The position numbers were made by a program, and so were the translations under genes. Of a DNA stretch of 64,000 bases, positions 2,079 through 23,531 are shown one piece after another. Position 1 is the stretch's first letter, and every line of letters starts with the position of its first letter. Origin of the DNA: a virus (Duplodnaviria; Heunggongvirae; Uroviricota; Caudoviricetes); IMG/VR virus record IMGVR_UViG_3300032294_002926, one strand, 5' to 3'. The notes below the pieces were generated by a model. It worked only from the letters and a program-made list of their open reading frames with translations. It had not been told where the DNA came from and did no database searches.

Positions 2079-3656
2079 ATGCCGGCATTTGTAACAGATC
2101 AATTTAGAATTTTCAATGCATCTAATTTTATAGAATCAGTAGAAAATTCTTCAAATTCTTATTATGTATTTTTAGGTTTATCTAACTCCACGACTCCTGT
2201 ATCGGGATTTGGTAGAAATGCTAATTGGGATACAAGTACCCCCAATCCAATTGATAGTTTTGATTATTTAAATCATTATAAATCCACTATTTTATTTGGT
2301 AAAAAAATCACAAGTGCAAATATTAGAAGAGTAATTAAAAGAATTGATTGGGTATCTGGTAAACAATATGAAATGTATAGACCAGATTATAGTATTATAA
2401 ATCCATCTCCTAAAACTGGATCAATGAGATTATATGATACAGATTATTACGTAATCAATTCAGACTATAGAGTATACATTTGTATAGATAATGGGTCTTT
2501 TGAAGGTAATGTAGTAGGAAATACATCTCAAATAGAACCAAAATTTACAGATTTAGAACCAACAAAATTTTCAGACGGATATGTATGGAAATATCTTTAT
2601 ACGATTCCTCCAAGTGATATCATTAAGTTTGATTCTATTGAATACATACCAATTCCCAATAACTGGCAAACTTCCACTGACCCTCAAATAGTAGCAGTGA
2701 GAGAAAACGGAGATTCGGAATTAAACGAAAATCAAATTAAAAAAGTATACATCAAAAAACAAGGACTTGGATATTCAACAGGAACTATATCTTGTGATCT
2801 GGTGGGTGATGGGTCCAATGGAACTGCCTCAGTAACTATAGATTCATCGACTAAAATCACAGATGTAATCGTAACATCTGGTGGGAAAAATTATACTTTT
2901 GCCACGGTTAATTTAGGATCTACTTCAGGAATTTCAACATTTGCTGAATTAGTTCCTATTATACCACCTTCTAAGGGGCATGGATTTGATGTGTATAAAG
3001 AACTTGGTGCAGATAAAGTTCTAATTTATATTAGATTTGATGATTCATCTAAAGATTTCCCAATTGATACTAAATTTGCTCAAGTAGGTATTTTAAAGAA
3101 CCCTACTATTTTCAATTCAAGTAATTTATTCAGTTTGGGTGAATTTTCTGGAGTTTATTCCATGAAATTAAATGCTACTCCTACAGGAACTATAACTGTA
3201 GGAGATAGAATTCAACAAACTGTAAATGGTGGAACTGCATATGGATATGTAGTTTCTTATGATAAAGAAACTTTTGTATTAAAATACTCTCAAGATCGTT
3301 CGCTCTATTATAACGGATTTAATGGAGGTGCTGGTGGATCAAATAATCAAGATTTTTATGGAATGTCATCCTTGGCAAATTCATCTGGAACAGTACTACC
3401 ATTTACTTCGGGGTTAAATAGTTCAGAAGTATCAAAAGTTGGTGGAGGATTTAATGCCACAATTGACAGTACGTTTAATGAAAATAAAGTCACAATTTTA
3501 AACAAAATAGTTAATTTAGGTGTTACATTTAATAATGGTCTCGCTAATCCGGAAATAAATAATAGGTCTGGAGATATAATTTATATTGATAATAGATCTA
3601 CTGTTACCAGGAGTTCTAGACAAAAAGAAGACGTTAAAATTATTCTGGAATTTTAA
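2079..3656 (+). CDS. gp8: baseplate wedge subunit
   Basis: N-terminus MPAFVTDQFRIFNA, DGYVWKYLYTI motif, C-terminal RQKEDVKIILEF; synteny. Confidence 0.85.
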   Translation: MPAFVTDQFRIFNASNFIESVENSSNSYYVFLGLSNSTTPVSGFGRNANWDTSTPNPIDSFDYLNHYKSTILFGKKITSANIRRVIKRIDWVSGKQYEMYRPDYSIINPSPKTGSMRLYDTDYYVINSDYRVYICIDNGSFEGNVVGNTSQIEPKFTDLEPTKFSDGYVWKYLYTIPPSDIIKFDSIEYIPIPNNWQTSTDPQIVAVRENGDSELNENQIKKVYIKKQGLGYSTGTISCDLVGDGSNGTASVTIDSSTKITDVIVTSGGKNYTFATVNLGSTSGISTFAELVPIIPPSKGHGFDVYKELGADKVLIYIRFDDSSKDFPIDTKFAQVGILKNPTIFNSSNLFSLGEFSGVYSMKLNATPTGTITVGDRIQQTVNGGTAYGYVVSYDKETFVLKYSQDRSLYYNGFNGGAGGSNNQDFYGMSSLANSSGTVLPFTSGLNSSEVSKVGGGFNATIDSTFNENKVTILNKIVNLGVTFNNGLANPEINNRSGDIIYIDNRSTVTRSSRQKEDVKIILEF

Positions 3657-18594: not shown

Positions 18595-18984
18595 ATGGGA
18601 ATTCAAGACATTCAACTTAGTCAGAAAGATGCGTATCTTTCTAATCCAAATTTAAAAAGAGCAAATACTCAGATCGAATGGTCTGAGGATAAGATCATCG
18701 AATTTTTAAAATGTAAAGATGATCCTGTTTATTTTGCAAAAAATCACCTCAAAATTGTGTCTTTGGATCATGGTTTAGTTCCTTTTAACTTATATCCTTT
18801 TCAGGAAAAGTTGATTCAGAACTTTCATAGGCATAGATTTAATATCTGTAAAATGCCCCGTCAGACTGGGAAATGTTTTAATAAAGATACAATAGTGAGA
18901 ATAAAAAATAAAAACACTGGTATAATACTGGAACTTACAATTGAAGAACTTTATGAAAAACTCAAGGAAGAAAACAGTAATTGA
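18595..18984 (+). CDS. gp17: terminase large subunit fragment 1 (to Walker A RQTGK) + IntN
   Basis: YLSNPNLKRAN..KCKDDPVYFA..KMPRQTGK followed by CFNKDTIVRI and a stop. Confidence 0.92.
   Translation: MGIQDIQLSQKDAYLSNPNLKRANTQIEWSEDKIIEFLKCKDDPVYFAKNHLKIVSLDHGLVPFNLYPFQEKLIQNFHRHRFNICKMPRQTGKCFNKDTIVRIKNKNTGIILELTIEELYEKLKEENSN
18874..18981 (+). mobile_element. split intein TerL-1, N-fragment (36 aa, Cys1)
   Basis: Block A C-F-N-K-D-T-I-V directly after the Walker A Lys; ELTIEELYE helix; ends at a stop. Confidence 0.9.
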
Positions 18985-19984
18985 ATGTATTGAATGTGGA
19001 GAAGTAATTCTTGGGGGTTCCCACATGTCAAGGCATGTTCAGAAAAAACATGGTTATAATTCTTATGATGAGTATAAAATAACTCATAAATTAATAAAAA
19101 CAAAAGAAACTCTTATTGATCAAGGTGCAGTATGTTGCAAAATTTGTGAACTAGTTTCACATGATTTGACATCCCATATAATAAGAACTCATAAAATAAG
19201 CGTAAATACTTACAAAAATCTTTATGGTGGTGAAATAAGAAGCACTAAATATCGCTCAGAACAATCTGAAAGAATTAAAGGTAACAAAAATCCTGCATAT
19301 AATCATGAAGGAAAGTACTCGCCATTTTCTGAAAAATTTATCTATGCTGATACTATAGATAAAAAAGAACTTTGTCAAAAAGTAAGTGAATCAAATAAAA
19401 ATAATGGAAATAATTCAACTACAGTAAAATATTGGTTAAAACGTGGTTATAGTTTAGAAGAATCTATTAAACAAATTTCTATAAGACAAACTACATTTAG
19501 TTTAAATCATTGTATTCAAAAATATGGTGAAGAAAATGGGAGAAAAAGGTGGTTAAAACGACAAGAAAAATGGATTGAAAGTCACAAAAAAAGTAGAAAG
19601 AATAAATTTTCAAAAATCTCCCAAGAGATGTTTTGGGAGATATATAATATTATAAAATTAGATAAGAATTTTATATTTTTTGCAGAACTTGATTCCGATA
19701 AAAAAATGGATCTTAGTGGAATAAATCACGAATACAAATTAAATCTTCCAGAAAGAATTCTTTTGCCGGATTTTATTAATATAAAAACTAAAAAAATAAT
19801 AGAATTTGATGGAACCTATTGGCATAATGAATATATTATAAAAAGTACAAATAGATTAAGGGATTTTGAACGAGATCAAATATTGATGTCAAACGGATTT
19901 AAAGTATTACATATAAAAGAAGAGAAATACAGAAAAGATAAAGAAAATATAATAAAAGAATGTTTGGAGTTTTTAAATGGCTAA
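18953..19984 (+). mobile_element. free-standing homing endonuclease (Zn-finger + Vsr/PD-(D/E)XK-like)
   Basis: CxxC..H..H fingers, YWLKRG repeat, LPDF..IIEFDGTYWH..RD nuclease motif; sits between the intein halves and overlaps both. Confidence 0.8.
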
Positions 19985-20321
19985 AATCATTGAAGAATTT
20001 AAAAATAATGAATGGGAAATAGAAACTCCATCTGGTTGGCAGTCATTTTCTGGTGTCGGTAAAACCATAGAATATGATGAATTTGAAATTCTCACAGAGA
20101 ATGGAAAAAAATTATATTGTGCTGATAAACATATTTTAATAGATGAATTTTGGGGTCAAATATTCTGTGATGAATTATTCACAGGAAGCAAAATTCAAAC
20201 AAAAGATGGAATAGAGAAAATAAAAACAATTAAGAAAACATCTAATATTTGCAATATGTATGATATCCTAGATGTTGAAAATGGAAATATTTTTTATAGC
20301 AATGATATTGTATCACATAAT
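19977..20321 (+). mobile_element. split intein TerL-1, C-fragment (115 aa, ends SHN, Ser+1)
   Basis: Block B CADKH, block F MYDI, block G IVSHN/S. Confidence 0.9.
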
Positions 20322-22259
20322 TCCTCCACAACTGTTGCTTATTTACTACATTACGCTCTATTCAATGATAGTGTAAATATTGCAATTCTTGCAAATAAAG
20401 CGACAACTGCCAGAGATCTTCTACAAAGACTCCAACTTGCATACGAAAATCTTCCGAAATGGATGCAACAGGGAGTTCTTCAGTGGAACAGAGGAAGTTT
20501 AGAACTAGAGAATGGATCTAAAATTATGGCCGCTTCCACATCAGCATCAGCAGTGCGTGGTGGATCTTATAATATCATATTCTTGGATGAGTTTGCATTT
20601 ATTCCAAATCATATTGCAGATGATTTCTTCGCTTCAGTTTATCCAACAATCTCATCTGGTAAAACAACTAAAGTTATCATAGTTTCTTGTGTCACAGACG
20701 ATACTTTTGTTCTTACTCCAAAAGGAATCTATGAAATGTCAGATTTTATAGATTATAATCAAGAAGAGAATCCAGTCAAAGGATATGAAGTCATTGATTA
20801 TCAGGTTTATGGACATGGAGGAATAAAAAACGGAAATATTTTAGTAAATAGTGGATATCATGACACTAAAGTCATATATTCACAATCATCTTTTGTTGAA
20901 TGTTCTTTAAGACATCCATGGTTTGTTTGTGATAATGGTATCTATGATTGGAAAAAAACTTCAGAATTAAACGGAAATGAGTATATTGCAGTTGAATATG
21001 GACATGATGTTTGGGGTAATGATAATCAAATAGAAGAAATAGAAATAACTCCAGATTTTGCGTATTTTCTTGGACTTTATATCTCAAAGGGATCTTCAAT
21101 TTACGAAATTAATGATGAAAATGAAATCAAATATAGAGGAATCGCAATAATTTGTAATGAAAACATTAGATCTACATTAAGGTCATTAAATTTAAATTAT
21201 AATTATGTTAATAACATAAATTATATAATTTCATCACCATCTCTTTGTGAGATTATGATAAATCTTGGATTTAATTTATCGGATAAATCTAAACAAAAAG
21301 AAATCCCCAAAAGACTTTTTAGAATGTCTAGAGAAAATATAATTTCTTTAATTCAAGGTATTATGGATGGTAATGGAACAGCTCAAAAAAGTAATGGAAT
21401 TGTTTCAATTACTTCAAAGTCACAGAAACTCATTAAACAAATTAGATTTTTATTAAACAATTTTGGAATATTGAGTAGTTATTATAAAATAGCAATAGAA
21501 AAGTCTCCAGAAGTAAAAGTCCATTCTTACAAATATAAAATTGAATTAAGTGGTGAAATGTCAAATTCCTATTACAATCTTATAGGATTTAAGTTTCAGA
21601 GAAAACAATTTAATGAAAAATATTTGATAAAAAATAATACAAAAAACAGTCATGATGTAGTTCCTTATAGTAAAAATGTTATTTTTTCTTTAAAAAATAC
21701 GCATCCAGAAGATTATAATAAAATCGTTAAATCAAAAATTTTAATAGGACATTATAAAAAAACTCCTCATTTTAGTAGAAAATTTTTATTGAAACATAAG
21801 AAGTTCTTTTTAAGTTTAAATAATGAAGTAATTAATCAATTATACAATTTTGTAGATGAGAGTATTAAATGGGAAAAAATTGATAAAATTCAAGATTCTA
21901 AAAATAAAGTATATGATTTCTCTTTAAAAGAAACAGGTGATAAATGGTGCCATAGTGTATTATTTAATAATATTTTAGGATCTAACACGCCACGAGGTAT
22001 GAATCATTTTTATCGTATGTGGCATGATGCAGAGAGAGGTAAAAATGGTTATGTTCCCACTGATGTTCATTGGTCAGAAGTTCCTGGAAGAGATGAAAAA
22101 TGGAAAGCAGAAACTATTGCGAACACTTCGGCAGAACAATTTCGAATCGAGTTTGAAAGTGTTCAGCATGACACATTAATAAATGTAGAAATGGATGGAG
22201 TATTACAAAAAATTTCAATAGGCGATTTATATAAGAACTTATACAATAAAAGTTGTTAA
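19977..22259 (+). CDS. gp17: terminase large subunit fragment 2: IntC - ATPase core (with cis intein) - IntN
   Basis: VSHN|SSTTVAYLLH, LDEFAF Walker B, VIIVS|C...SN|TPRGMNHFY, QFRIEFE|SVQHDT. Confidence 0.92.
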   Translation: MAKIIEEFKNNEWEIETPSGWQSFSGVGKTIEYDEFEILTENGKKLYCADKHILIDEFWGQIFCDELFTGSKIQTKDGIEKIKTIKKTSNICNMYDILDVENGNIFYSNDIVSHNSSTTVAYLLHYALFNDSVNIAILANKATTARDLLQRLQLAYENLPKWMQQGVLQWNRGSLELENGSKIMAASTSASAVRGGSYNIIFLDEFAFIPNHIADDFFASVYPTISSGKTTKVIIVSCVTDDTFVLTPKGIYEMSDFIDYNQEENPVKGYEVIDYQVYGHGGIKNGNILVNSGYHDTKVIYSQSSFVECSLRHPWFVCDNGIYDWKKTSELNGNEYIAVEYGHDVWGNDNQIEEIEITPDFAYFLGLYISKGSSIYEINDENEIKYRGIAIICNENIRSTLRSLNLNYNYVNNINYIISSPSLCEIMINLGFNLSDKSKQKEIPKRLFRMSRENIISLIQGIMDGNGTAQKSNGIVSITSKSQKLIKQIRFLLNNFGILSSYYKIAIEKSPEVKVHSYKYKIELSGEMSNSYYNLIGFKFQRKQFNEKYLIKNNTKNSHDVVPYSKNVIFSLKNTHPEDYNKIVKSKILIGHYKKTPHFSRKFLLKHKKFFLSLNNEVINQLYNFVDESIKWEKIDKIQDSKNKVYDFSLKETGDKWCHSVLFNNILGSNTPRGMNHFYRMWHDAERGKNGYVPTDVHWSEVPGRDEKWKAETIANTSAEQFRIEFESVQHDTLINVEMDGVLQKISIGDLYKNLYNKSC
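20688..21986 (+). mobile_element. contiguous intein TerL-2 (433 aa) with degenerate LAGLIDADG domain
   Basis: CVTDDTFV start, SLRHP block B, VYDF block F, ends LGSN/T; removing it restores VIIVSTPRG. Confidence 0.9.
22158..22256 (+). mobile_element. split intein TerL-3, N-fragment (33 aa, Ser1)
   Basis: SVQHDTLINV..ISIGDLYK after EFE; stop at 22257. Confidence 0.85.
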
Positions 22260-22268
22260 AAATTTAAA

Positions 22269-22613
22269 ATGAATTTACCATCAACAGTAATTAAAAATAA
22301 TTCAAATATTAAAATAGAAACTCCATATGGATTTGAGAATTTTTATGGAGTGAATAAAATAGAGAAAGATAGTTATATTCATCTATATTTCACAAATGGT
22401 GAAGAACTTAAATGTTCATTAGATCATCCTTTATCCACAATCGAAGGTATTATAAAAGCAAAAGATTTAGATAAGTACACTGAAGTTTATACAAAAAATG
22501 GTGGATGTTTTTTAAAAAAATCAAAAGTCATTAATAAACCAATTGAACTTTATGACATTGTAAACTCTGGAATCAAACATTTATATTACACAAATAATAT
22601 AATATCTCATAAT
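22269..22613 (+). mobile_element. split intein TerL-3, C-fragment (115 aa, ends SHN, Cys+1)
   Basis: Block B CSLDHP, block F LYDI, block G IISHN/C. Confidence 0.9.
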
Positions 22614-23531
22614 TGCGAATTCTTAGGGTCAATGAATACCCTAATAAATGCAGCAAAATTAAAGAACTTTGTATATGATGATCCGATACAAAGAAATGCC
22701 GGTTTAGATGTTTATGAAGATCCAAAAGAAGATAATAATTATTTAATTACTGTTGATGTTGCGCGTGGTCTCGGAAATGATTATTCTGCATTTATTGTAT
22801 TCGATATCACAAATTTTCCATATAAAGTCATAGCAAAATATAAGAACAATGAAATTAAACCAATGCTGTTTCCCAGTATTATACATGAAGTTGCAAAAGG
22901 ATACAATAATTCATGGGTACTAATTGAAGTTAATGACATTGGGGATCAAGTAGCAAATATTCTACATTTTGATTTGGAATATGACAATATTCTCATGTGT
23001 GCAATGAAAGGTCGAGCAGGTCAAATTGTTGGATCTGGATTTAGTGGTAAAAGATCTCAATTAGGTGTGAGAATGACATCTTCTGTTAAAAAGTTGGGAT
23101 GTTCAAATCTTAAAACACTAATGGAAGATGATAAATTAATTACAAACGATTATGATATCATTTCAGAATTAACAACATTCATTCAAAAACATAATTCATT
23201 TGAAGCAGAAGAAGGAACTAATGATGATCTGGCCATGTGTTTGGTCATTTTCTCTTGGTTGGTTGCACAGGATTATTTCAAAGAAATGACTGATAATGAT
23301 GTAAGAAAAAGAATATATGAGGAACAAAAAAATCAAATAGAACAAGATATGTCACCATTTGGATTTATTTTAGATGGAATAGATGATTCTGAAATATTTG
23401 TAGAAAAAGCAACCGGAGATACGTGGATGAATGCAAATAAAAAAGACCCTAATCAATTATTAGAAGTATGGAATTTAGATGAATATGGTGATGTATCAAA
23501 TGAATGGAATTATATGTGGGATTATAATTAG
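22269..23531 (+). CDS. gp17: terminase large subunit fragment 3: IntC + nuclease domain
   Basis: IISHN|CEFLGS; TVDVARGLGNDYSAF; NDDLAMCLV nuclease motifs. Confidence 0.92.
   Translation: MNLPSTVIKNNSNIKIETPYGFENFYGVNKIEKDSYIHLYFTNGEELKCSLDHPLSTIEGIIKAKDLDKYTEVYTKNGGCFLKKSKVINKPIELYDIVNSGIKHLYYTNNIISHNCEFLGSMNTLINAAKLKNFVYDDPIQRNAGLDVYEDPKEDNNYLITVDVARGLGNDYSAFIVFDITNFPYKVIAKYKNNEIKPMLFPSIIHEVAKGYNNSWVLIEVNDIGDQVANILHFDLEYDNILMCAMKGRAGQIVGSGFSGKRSQLGVRMTSSVKKLGCSNLKTLMEDDKLITNDYDIISELTTFIQKHNSFEAEEGTNDDLAMCLVIFSWLVAQDYFKEMTDNDVRKRIYEEQKNQIEQDMSPFGFILDGIDDSEIFVEKATGDTWMNANKKDPNQLLEVWNLDEYGDVSNEWNYMWDYN

Follow-up and report, generated by a model that had tools for sequence, protein, structure and literature searches.

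The gene for the large terminase (TerL) at positions 18595-23531 of IMG/VR record IMGVR_UViG_3300032294_002926, a 64-kb stretch of viral DNA that we refer to in its full length as the window, is in all likelihood a single gene of a T4-like, cyanophage-type myovirus that has been colonised by three inteins, and its separately translated pieces would be joined into TerL by two trans-splicing reactions and one cis-splicing reaction. We give this reading a probability of roughly 0.85. The middle polypeptide begins with the C-terminal half (IntC) of one split intein and ends with the N-terminal half (IntN) of another, with a complete cis-intein between them.

Results

TerL is encoded by three polypeptides

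Three open reading frames (ORFs) lie on the same strand, at 18595-18984 (fragment 1, 129 amino acids), 19977-22259 (fragment 2, 760 amino acids) and 22269-23531 (fragment 3, 420 amino acids), and a fourth ORF of about 343 amino acids lies between the first two. The junctions were mapped by BLASTP comparison of the three ORFs with their best match, the uninterrupted 573-amino-acid TerL of Synechococcus phage S-SRM01. Residues 1-93 of fragment 1 correspond to S-SRM01 residues 1-93 and end in PRQTGK, and the next 36 residues (Cys1 to Asn36) are an insert. Fragment 2 starts with a 115-residue insert ending in SHN, takes up the terminase at residues 116-237 (S-SRM01 94-215), is interrupted again by a 433-residue insert running from Cys1 to a terminal Ser-Asn (residues 238-670), continues the terminase at residues 671-727 (S-SRM01 216-272), and closes with a 33-residue insert whose first residue is Ser (residues 728-760). 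In fragment 3, residues 1-115 are an insert ending in SHN and residues 116-420 correspond to S-SRM01 273-573. The exteins (93 + 122 + 57 + 305 = 577 amino acids) follow one another with no residue gained or lost at any junction, an agreement that, judged from the alignments, is far beyond chance. Together they are about 82% identical to S-SRM01 TerL (81-87% individually), and they contain no frameshift. The features of the locus are listed below.

18595..18873 (+): TerL extein 1, 93 amino acids, up to the Gly-Lys of Walker A; 82% identical to S-SRM01 1-93
18874..18984 (+): IntN-1, 36 amino acids (Cys1) and a stop codon; the extra residues past K93
18953..19984 (+): free-standing homing endonuclease gene, 343 amino acids from the ATG at 18953; Pfam DUF559
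19977..20321 (+): IntC-1, 115 amino acids, ending in SHN and followed by Ser+1; match to CatC (6DSL_B), conserved block residues
20322..20687 (+): TerL extein 2, 122 amino acids, comprising the remainder of Walker A, Walker B and the beginning of the C-motif (VIIVS at its end); S-SRM01 94-215, Pfam Terminase_6N
20688..21986 (+): cis-splicing intein 2, 433 amino acids, Cys1 to Ser-Asn and followed by Thr+1, with a LAGLIDADG domain; Pfam and BLASTP junctions
21987..22157 (+): TerL extein 3, 57 amino acids, ending in QFRIEFE; 86% identical to S-SRM01 about 215-272
22158..22259 (+): IntN-3, 33 amino acids (Ser1) and a TAA stop; match to CatN (6DSL_A), BLASTP junctions
22269..22613 (+): IntC-3, 115 amino acids, ending in SHN and followed by Cys+1; match to CatC (6DSL_B), BLASTP junctions
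22614..23531 (+): TerL extein 4, 305 amino acids and a stop, hinge and nuclease domain (CEFLGS at its start); 81% identical to S-SRM01 269-572, Pfam Terminase_6C

A sequence-only reading of this DNA had described TerL as three polypeptides, of which the middle one is ordered IntC, extein, cis-intein, extein, IntN. The BLASTP junctions bear this out, and the coordinates and lengths that it gave (36/115, 433 and 33/115 residues) agree with the S-SRM01 alignment to the residue.

With the inserts removed, the ATPase domain (Walker A, Walker B and C-motif) and the RNaseH-like nuclease domain are colinear and are recognised by Pfam Terminase_6N and Terminase_6C; on this comparison the four extein pieces rebuild a colinear T4-type TerL. 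The insertion sites were numbered through the alignment of S-SRM01 TerL with T4 gp17 (PDB 3EZK, E = 1e-102), in which the chain index equals T4 numbering. Site 1 falls between K166 and T167, within Walker A (161-SRQLGKT-167). Site 2 falls between T286 and T287, within the TTT of the ATPase C-motif. Site 3 falls between T353 and A354, seven residues ahead of the ATPase/nuclease boundary at 360; the alignment with the RB49 nuclease domain (3C6A) starts at S-SRM01 residue 279, six residues past this site. Fragment 1 thus carries the N-terminus up to the P-loop Lys, fragment 2 the remaining ATPase, and fragment 3 the hinge and nuclease.

The window is AT-rich (about 30% G+C). In a blastn search of the INPHARED phage records, the exteins alone matched, in 485 records that are mostly of T4-like cyanophages and always in four pieces, and no phage record there covered more than about one-third of the region. 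Over 6075 nucleotides, the TAA between IntN-3 and IntC-3 among them, the region agrees at every position with a separate Logan assembly of run ERR2848542 (100% identity).

Split inteins 1 and 3 are two lineages of one family

IMG/VR was searched at the DNA level with IntC-1 and IntC-3, and the ten parts of the window were mapped onto the 16 loci that matched; related loci are cited below with the prefix L. The environmental copies that we call GOS-like or AceL-like take these labels from Ser1 or Cys1, length and site.

In a search of PDB sequences, the best solved relative of IntC-3 was CatC (6DSL_B, E = 6.8e-18), and IntN-3 matched CatN (6DSL_A, E = 0.0057). Intein 3 occupies the EFE/CEFLGS site of TerL, as the atypically split TerL inteins do, and its splicing residues are Ser1, a block B SLDH, the SHN end and Cys+1. 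It is split past the first beta-hairpin and helix, which leaves 33 and 115 amino acids in separate ORFs. IntC-3 is 87-89% identical to its counterparts in L005 and L009-L012. Among characterised inteins, GOS-TerL is an atypical split intein found in nature, having an IntN of 37 and an IntC of 115 amino acids and the rare Ser1/Cys+1 combination, and AceL-TerL is split 25/104 with Cys1/Cys+1 (PMC11766414). By its split (33/115), its Ser1/Cys+1 and its host protein, intein 3 is an allele of the GOS-TerL type. The window has no endonuclease gene between the halves at site 3, where the gap is 9 nucleotides. Fragments 2 and 3 share a reading frame, and TAA is followed by 9 nucleotides (three codons, KFK) and then ATG (KSC, stop, KFK, M; 22257-22271); read-through of the fragment 2 TAA would give a contiguous mini-intein of about 152 amino acids. 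We discarded sequencing error or recoding as an explanation of this in-frame stop, which is identical in the independent assembly, while the genes of relatives are broken in other frames or by an inserted gene.

Intein 1 has the same short-N/long-C architecture, as the sequence-only reading had noted: the split again falls after the first beta-hairpin and helix (36/115 amino acids). The best solved relative of IntC-1 was also CatC (6DSL_B, E = 1.8e-8), and the next PDB match was VidaL (6VGV), another atypically split intein. CatN (6DSL_A) was the top PDB match of IntN-1 as well, at an E-value of 0.9 that alone is not significant; IntN-1 is 59-65% identical to the IntN-1 of L002-L007 over 32-34 aligned residues. 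Cys1, H52 (block B), D96 (block F) and H114-N115 (block G) are invariant in the alignment, and Ser+1 is the Ser/Thr of Walker A. Because intein 1 sits in Walker A and not at EFE/CEFLGS, the site of the atypically split TerL inteins, it is a paralogue at another site rather than an allele. A maximum-likelihood tree of 19 IntC sequences, unrooted and with one very long, unstable row (L017), separates the site-1 and site-3 copies by a long branch with support of 98/99. Identity between the two split inteins of the window is 36% in the IntC halves and 21% in the IntN halves. On tree and alignments, inteins 1 and 3 are two paralogous lineages of the atypically split TerL family.

The intein halves are under purifying selection, as would be expected if TerL maturation depends on them: Nei-Gojobori ratios of nonsynonymous to synonymous substitution rates (dN/dS) were 0.02-0.19 for IntC-3, 0.12-0.29 for IntC-1 and 0.04-0.16 for the exteins. 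The proposal that maturation takes two trans-splicing and one cis-splicing reactions accords with the presence of all splicing nucleophiles and of the conserved residues of blocks B, F and G, and with the dN/dS of the halves (0.02-0.29).

Site 1 has the hallmark of a fractured gene, a free-standing homing endonuclease gene between the split-intein halves. Its product combines a CxxC..HxxxH finger in the N-terminal part with a Vsr-like/DUF559 nuclease in the C-terminal part (Pfam DUF559, E = 3e-8; score 33.9 bits, cut-off 20.6), and it is 62-63% identical to the ORF at the same position in L002-L005 and L007. The family assignment is based on this Pfam match and on the description by Dassa et al. 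(PMC2677866); a PDB sequence search with the protein returned nothing meaningful. The ORF is open from 18941 and overlaps the end of fragment 1 by 32 nucleotides and the start of fragment 2 by 8 nucleotides. Its start codon is uncertain, the start chosen by the gene caller lying 24 codons further in. The finger begins immediately past the IntN-1 stop (18941-19030). A GGAG lies 10 nucleotides ahead of the fragment 2 ATG (19960-19984), and the endonuclease ORF ends 8 nucleotides into fragment 2. These overlaps, together with the GGAG, suggest that translation of fragment 1, the endonuclease and fragment 2 may be coupled.

The cis-intein has probably lost its endonuclease activity

Intein 2 matches Pfam LAGLIDADG_3 (E = 8.7e-10) and has 72 homologues in TerL proteins, several of them in otherwise uninterrupted TerLs of about 1000 amino acids and 68% identity; the relatives that were aligned occupy the same TerL site. 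Motif 1 of intein 2 ends in LYISKGS and motif 2 in IMDGNG, and the corresponding sequences in its closest relatives (68% identical) are LYIAEGS and IMDGDG. Lys and Asn thus replace the catalytic Glu and Asp of the nearest relatives, and the two catalytic acids that define an active LAGLIDADG enzyme are absent. Intein 2 also lacks about 29 amino acids, just before motif 1, that all relatives have. In view of these changes the endonuclease has probably lost its activity, and the splicing domain seems to be intact. More distant relatives of intein 2 end in His-Gln, not in Ser-Asn.

The three-piece layout recurs in related phages

The contents of the two split-intein sites in the related loci are as follows.

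L002: site 1, split intein and Vsr-like gene; site 3, empty (EFE/CEFLGS)
L009 and L016: site 1, empty; site 3, split intein without an endonuclease gene
L005: site 1, split intein and Vsr-like gene; site 3, split intein, no gene, IntN of 37 amino acids with Ser1
L003 and L004: site 1, split intein and Vsr-like gene; site 3, Cys1 AceL-like split intein and GIY-YIG gene
L008 and L013: site 1, upstream of the start of the locus; site 3, Ser1 split intein and Vsr-like gene
L010-L012: site 1, contiguous LAGLIDADG-type insert; site 3, split intein, no gene
L014: site 1, insert of about 328 amino acids of untyped kind (2586-3569); site 3, split intein
L006: site 1, endonuclease gene almost wholly deleted in frame, leaving the intein as one contiguous ORF; site 3, Ser1 IntN and then another gene, the locus being cut by the contig end

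L018-L021 carry an AceL-like Cys1 intein and a GIY-YIG gene at site 3. Every combination of presence and absence of these elements is found among related viral contigs, as is expected for mobile inteins. L005 has three pieces like the window, but its fragment 2 and fragment 3 ORFs are in different frames.

A protein search with the middle fragment of L005 gave clusters in which the same arrangement could be followed. The proteins of clusters P0001, P0002 and P0003 start with IntC-1 and finish with IntN-3. P0002 is present on seven contigs, and the four shown, from four samples, have the complete three-piece gene order, in which site 1 holds a DUF559 remnant of 90 amino acids and site 3 a GIY-YIG gene. 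P0010 and P0012 combine IntC-1 with the cis-intein of the window, and both are cut by contig ends. Among the best 120 clusters, 92 are uninterrupted at both sites, and another 17 represent the N-terminal part of a TerL in two pieces whose only break is at site 3. The three-piece layout is recurrent in independent metagenomes, yet uncommon.

Several related loci show other states of these elements. In L018 (3736-4008), and likewise in L019 and L020, the locus is in three pieces with only the 90-amino-acid DUF559 remnant at site 1 and a full GIY-YIG gene at site 3; by its length and position this remnant is an intermediate stage of endonuclease decay. In L006 (5542-6963), a short zinc-finger remnant is fused between IntN-1 and IntC-1; here a split intein may have reverted in nature to the cis form. 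In L010 (374-1357; also in L011 and L012) the Walker A site holds a contiguous LAGLIDADG-type intein of about 328 amino acids, and clusters P0021 and P0025 have a LAGLIDADG-bearing protein that ends in HN ahead of the same extein. With contiguous LAGLIDADG-type inteins and split inteins both found at Walker A, two intein types would be competing for one insertion site. L017 (3337-6798) encodes a more distant TerL that is interrupted immediately ahead of Walker B by a third intein of the atypically split kind (GKSIN/C and ISN/CLIIDE). The IntN hairpin of this intein, KIKNKNTG, is nearly that of the window IntN-1, and a 328-amino-acid ORF lies between its halves; past CLIIDE the TerL frame is broken over about 240 nucleotides, where a further insert is possible.

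Charge patterns and order of synthesis of the intein halves

The first 22 residues of IntN-1 have a net charge of +2 in the window, compared with +5 in relatives; for IntC-1 the net charge is -9 in the window, compared with -12 to -16 in relatives. The values are -1 to -4 for IntN-3 and +2 to -3 for IntC-3. The beta-hairpin of IntN-1 is basic (RIKNKNTG) and that of IntN-3 acidic (NVEMDG). In HMMER alignments to Cat, the basic IntN-1 hairpin is aligned with the acidic EILDDDG of Cat, and the acidic IntC-1 strands EWEIETP and IEYDEFE are aligned with basic or neutral positions of Cat and IntC-3. This pattern was read from aligned sequences.

The order of synthesis may also help correct pairing. 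Fragment 1 is encoded upstream of fragment 2, whose translation starts with IntC-1 and reaches IntN-3 some 645 residues later. Translation of IntC-3 follows that of IntN-3 directly, from 9 nucleotides downstream on the same mRNA.

Discussion

The anatomy of the locus, its homology, its recurrence and the selection on it are observed; from them we infer that the pieces splice, in which order this happens and that the pairs are orthogonal. Under the reading that we favour, three separate inteins would have colonised the gene at three conserved motifs. IntN-1, at the end of fragment 1, would dock into the N-terminal IntC-1 of fragment 2, and trans-splicing would restore the P-loop. Intein 2 would be excised in cis. 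The C-terminal IntN-3 of fragment 2 would dock into the N-terminal IntC-3 of fragment 3, and trans-splicing would join the ATPase to the nuclease. The product would be a TerL of 577 amino acids, or about 66 kDa as estimated from its length. Intein 3 has lost its endonuclease gene. Correct pairing might be helped by the divergence of the lineages, by the opposite charge patterns and by the order of synthesis. We tentatively suggest, at rather less than even odds, that a charge-swapped recognition code has evolved, with a basic IntN and acidic IntC at Walker A and an acidic IntN and near-neutral IntC at the domain boundary, and that the two pairs are mutually orthogonal, forming a natural tandem trans-splicing system.

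Several points weigh against this interpretation as a whole. That these particular sequences splice is deduced from sequence. Intein 2 has Ser, not His, as its penultimate residue, and IntC-1 has Ala at the usual position of the block B Thr; active inteins with such variants exist, and splicing may be slower. The charge and timing arguments for orthogonality are deductions as well, and the literature on the Cat intein stresses hydrophobic rather than electrostatic recognition (PMC11766414). Finally, no second TerL copy is present within the 64-kb window, to which the search was confined, and an intact second terL may lie elsewhere in the genome; one contig bearing fragment 2 is 236 kb long.

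The alternative that survives best, raised by the sequence-only reading, is that the halves mis-pair to a substantial degree. IntN-3 could react with IntC-1 of the same chain and cyclise the ATPase core, or IntN-1 could react with IntC-3 and join extein 1 to the nuclease, either as a cost or as a regulated output. The two split inteins are homologous and have the same unusual split point, and the nucleophiles would permit both reactions (Ser1/Ser+1 for the cycle, Cys1/Cys+1 for the skipping). Moreover, the IntN of AceL-TerL can replace that of GOS-TerL (PMC11766414), and the environmental AceL-like and GOS-like copies are 40% identical in IntC, slightly above the 36% between site 1 and site 3; the earlier view that such a gene needs strict discrimination between its pairs is a fair one. 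The sequence-only reading had also proposed modelling the non-cognate complexes, and the predicted complex of IntC-1 with IntN-3 lends slight support to mis-pairing: it scored 0.55, and the best of three controls scored 0.00. The runs agreed in at least 71% of contacts, with a partner pLDDT (predicted local distance difference test) of at least 58; our own alignments served as input, which makes the calibration rough. In that calibration, 58 of 80 solved complexes and 2 of 110 mismatched pairs attained the fold-score mark, and scores of 0.60 or less were given by seven of the 80 and by both mismatches that passed. Because a like complex (6DSL) has been solved and close cousins of true partners often pass, the score would reflect structural likeness, not binding.

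Other evidence makes substantial mis-pairing unlikely. Cyclisation would bring together two acidic partners, IntN-3 and the strongly negative IntC-1 (-9 to -16), whereas the hairpin of the cognate IntN-1 is basic; charge gives no obvious reason against the pairing of IntN-1 with IntC-3 that would skip the ATPase. The site-1 and site-3 lineages have long been separated, IntC-1 is synthesised well ahead of IntN-3, and the three-piece layout of this essential enzyme has been kept in several lineages under purifying selection. A ring without the P-loop Lys, or a nuclease fused to 93 N-terminal residues, would presumably be useless or harmful, and selection should oppose both. As for regulated side products, nothing points to them. 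We therefore treat cyclisation as a speculation rather than a finding, and keep our claims modest.

It might also be proposed that the intein halves serve as docking domains only, and that TerL assembles non-covalently from unspliced pieces. Split phage genes that work without splicing do exist, for example some fragmented phage ribonucleotide reductases (PMC3045599), and splicing in the present locus is deduced rather than measured. We consider this very unlikely, given that all catalytic splicing residues are kept and conserved, that an unspliced intein of 151 residues would sit in the P-loop and one of 433 residues in the C-motif, and that the characterised relatives GOS-TerL, AceL-TerL and Cat all splice (PMC11766414).

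Equally little credit can be given to partial read-through of the in-frame TAA, by which fragments 2 and 3 would in part form one chain and intein 3 would splice in cis. The two fragments are in the same frame and are separated by nothing but the TAA and three codons. A shared frame, however, is a 1-in-3 chance event; in L005 the two ORFs are in different frames, other relatives have a whole endonuclease gene at this point, and no tRNA, suppressor or other, is encoded in the window. That the locus is a decaying pseudogene of a defective phage, as the inactive appearance of the intein 2 endonuclease domain might suggest, is extremely improbable in view of intact exteins that are 81-87% identical to cultured phage TerL and free of frameshifts, of the low dN/dS, and of the same layout in many contigs.

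The favoured reading, spliced assembly from three polypeptides, can be set beside known systems. Intein 3 resembles GOS-TerL, AceL-TerL and Cat (6DSL; Cat is a consensus) in its host protein TerL and in its short-N/long-C split, and it shares the IntC length of 115 amino acids and the Ser1/Cys+1 pair with GOS-TerL (PMC11766414). Intein 1 is like the Cat family in its split point and fold family (CatC, 1.8e-8) but differs in its site (Walker A), its Cys1/Ser+1, its separate clade and its opposite charge pattern. Vsr-like endonuclease genes between split-intein halves have been described for fractured genes, among them a gp17-like "Terminase" locus from Lake Gatun with a split intein "fractured at an unusual point" and a C-part of 122 residues (PMC2677866). 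Site 1 of the window is like the Lake Gatun locus in having a split intein with a Vsr-like gene between its halves in a myovirus gp17 homologue; the Lake Gatun locus has one fracture, whereas the window has two, the second without an endonuclease gene, and a cis-intein in addition. Intein 2 is at the same site as the contiguous LAGLIDADG TerL inteins, from which it differs in the loss of both catalytic acids and about 29 amino acids and in sharing its gene with two split inteins.

The middle fragment had been called SICLOPPS-like, after the split-intein circular ligation of peptides and proteins. The likeness holds for the order IntC, extein, IntN on one polypeptide. It does not extend to the halves themselves: SICLOPPS uses both halves of one intein, paired within the chain, whereas those of fragment 2 come from two intein lineages (support 98/99; 36% identity in IntC and 21% in IntN) and have their partners encoded on fragments 1 and 3. 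Any three-piece protein joined by two split inteins has an IntC-extein-IntN middle, and the proper analogue is engineered tandem protein trans-splicing, whose designs expressly call for two orthogonal pairs (PMC7210297, PMC12707363). It follows the same three-fragment plan, with the IntC of pair A at the N-terminus and the IntN of pair B at the C-terminus of the middle piece, and the locus may be regarded as its natural counterpart. The engineered systems are man-made and use unrelated inteins that were selected to be orthogonal; the window has a natural arrangement in an essential viral enzyme, with two paralogues of one family.

Each component of the locus is already of a known kind: atypically split TerL inteins, the fractured-gene arrangement that includes a Vsr-like endonuclease, and a cis-intein of the LAGLIDADG type. 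The literature that we searched, which was incomplete, shows engineered systems only and no natural three-piece or doubly split-intein protein, which is not proof of novelty; nor did we find described there two paralogous atypical split inteins in one essential gene, giving a natural IntC-extein-IntN middle protein.

Split inteins are common tools of protein engineering, and assembly from three segments calls for pairs without cross-reaction. Nature appears to run the tandem reaction on an essential viral motor, with two relatives of the rare short-N/long-C family and a cis-intein. If the pairs are orthogonal, they would be ready-made tools for three-segment assembly, since a short IntN can be made synthetically, and two short-IntN pairs would already have been tested by nature in one protein; they would also show by example how paralogous split inteins escape mis-pairing. 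The related contigs, in which empty, split, endonuclease-bearing, endonuclease-decayed and re-fused states are all found in one gene, show in compact form the life cycle of inteins and homing endonucleases.

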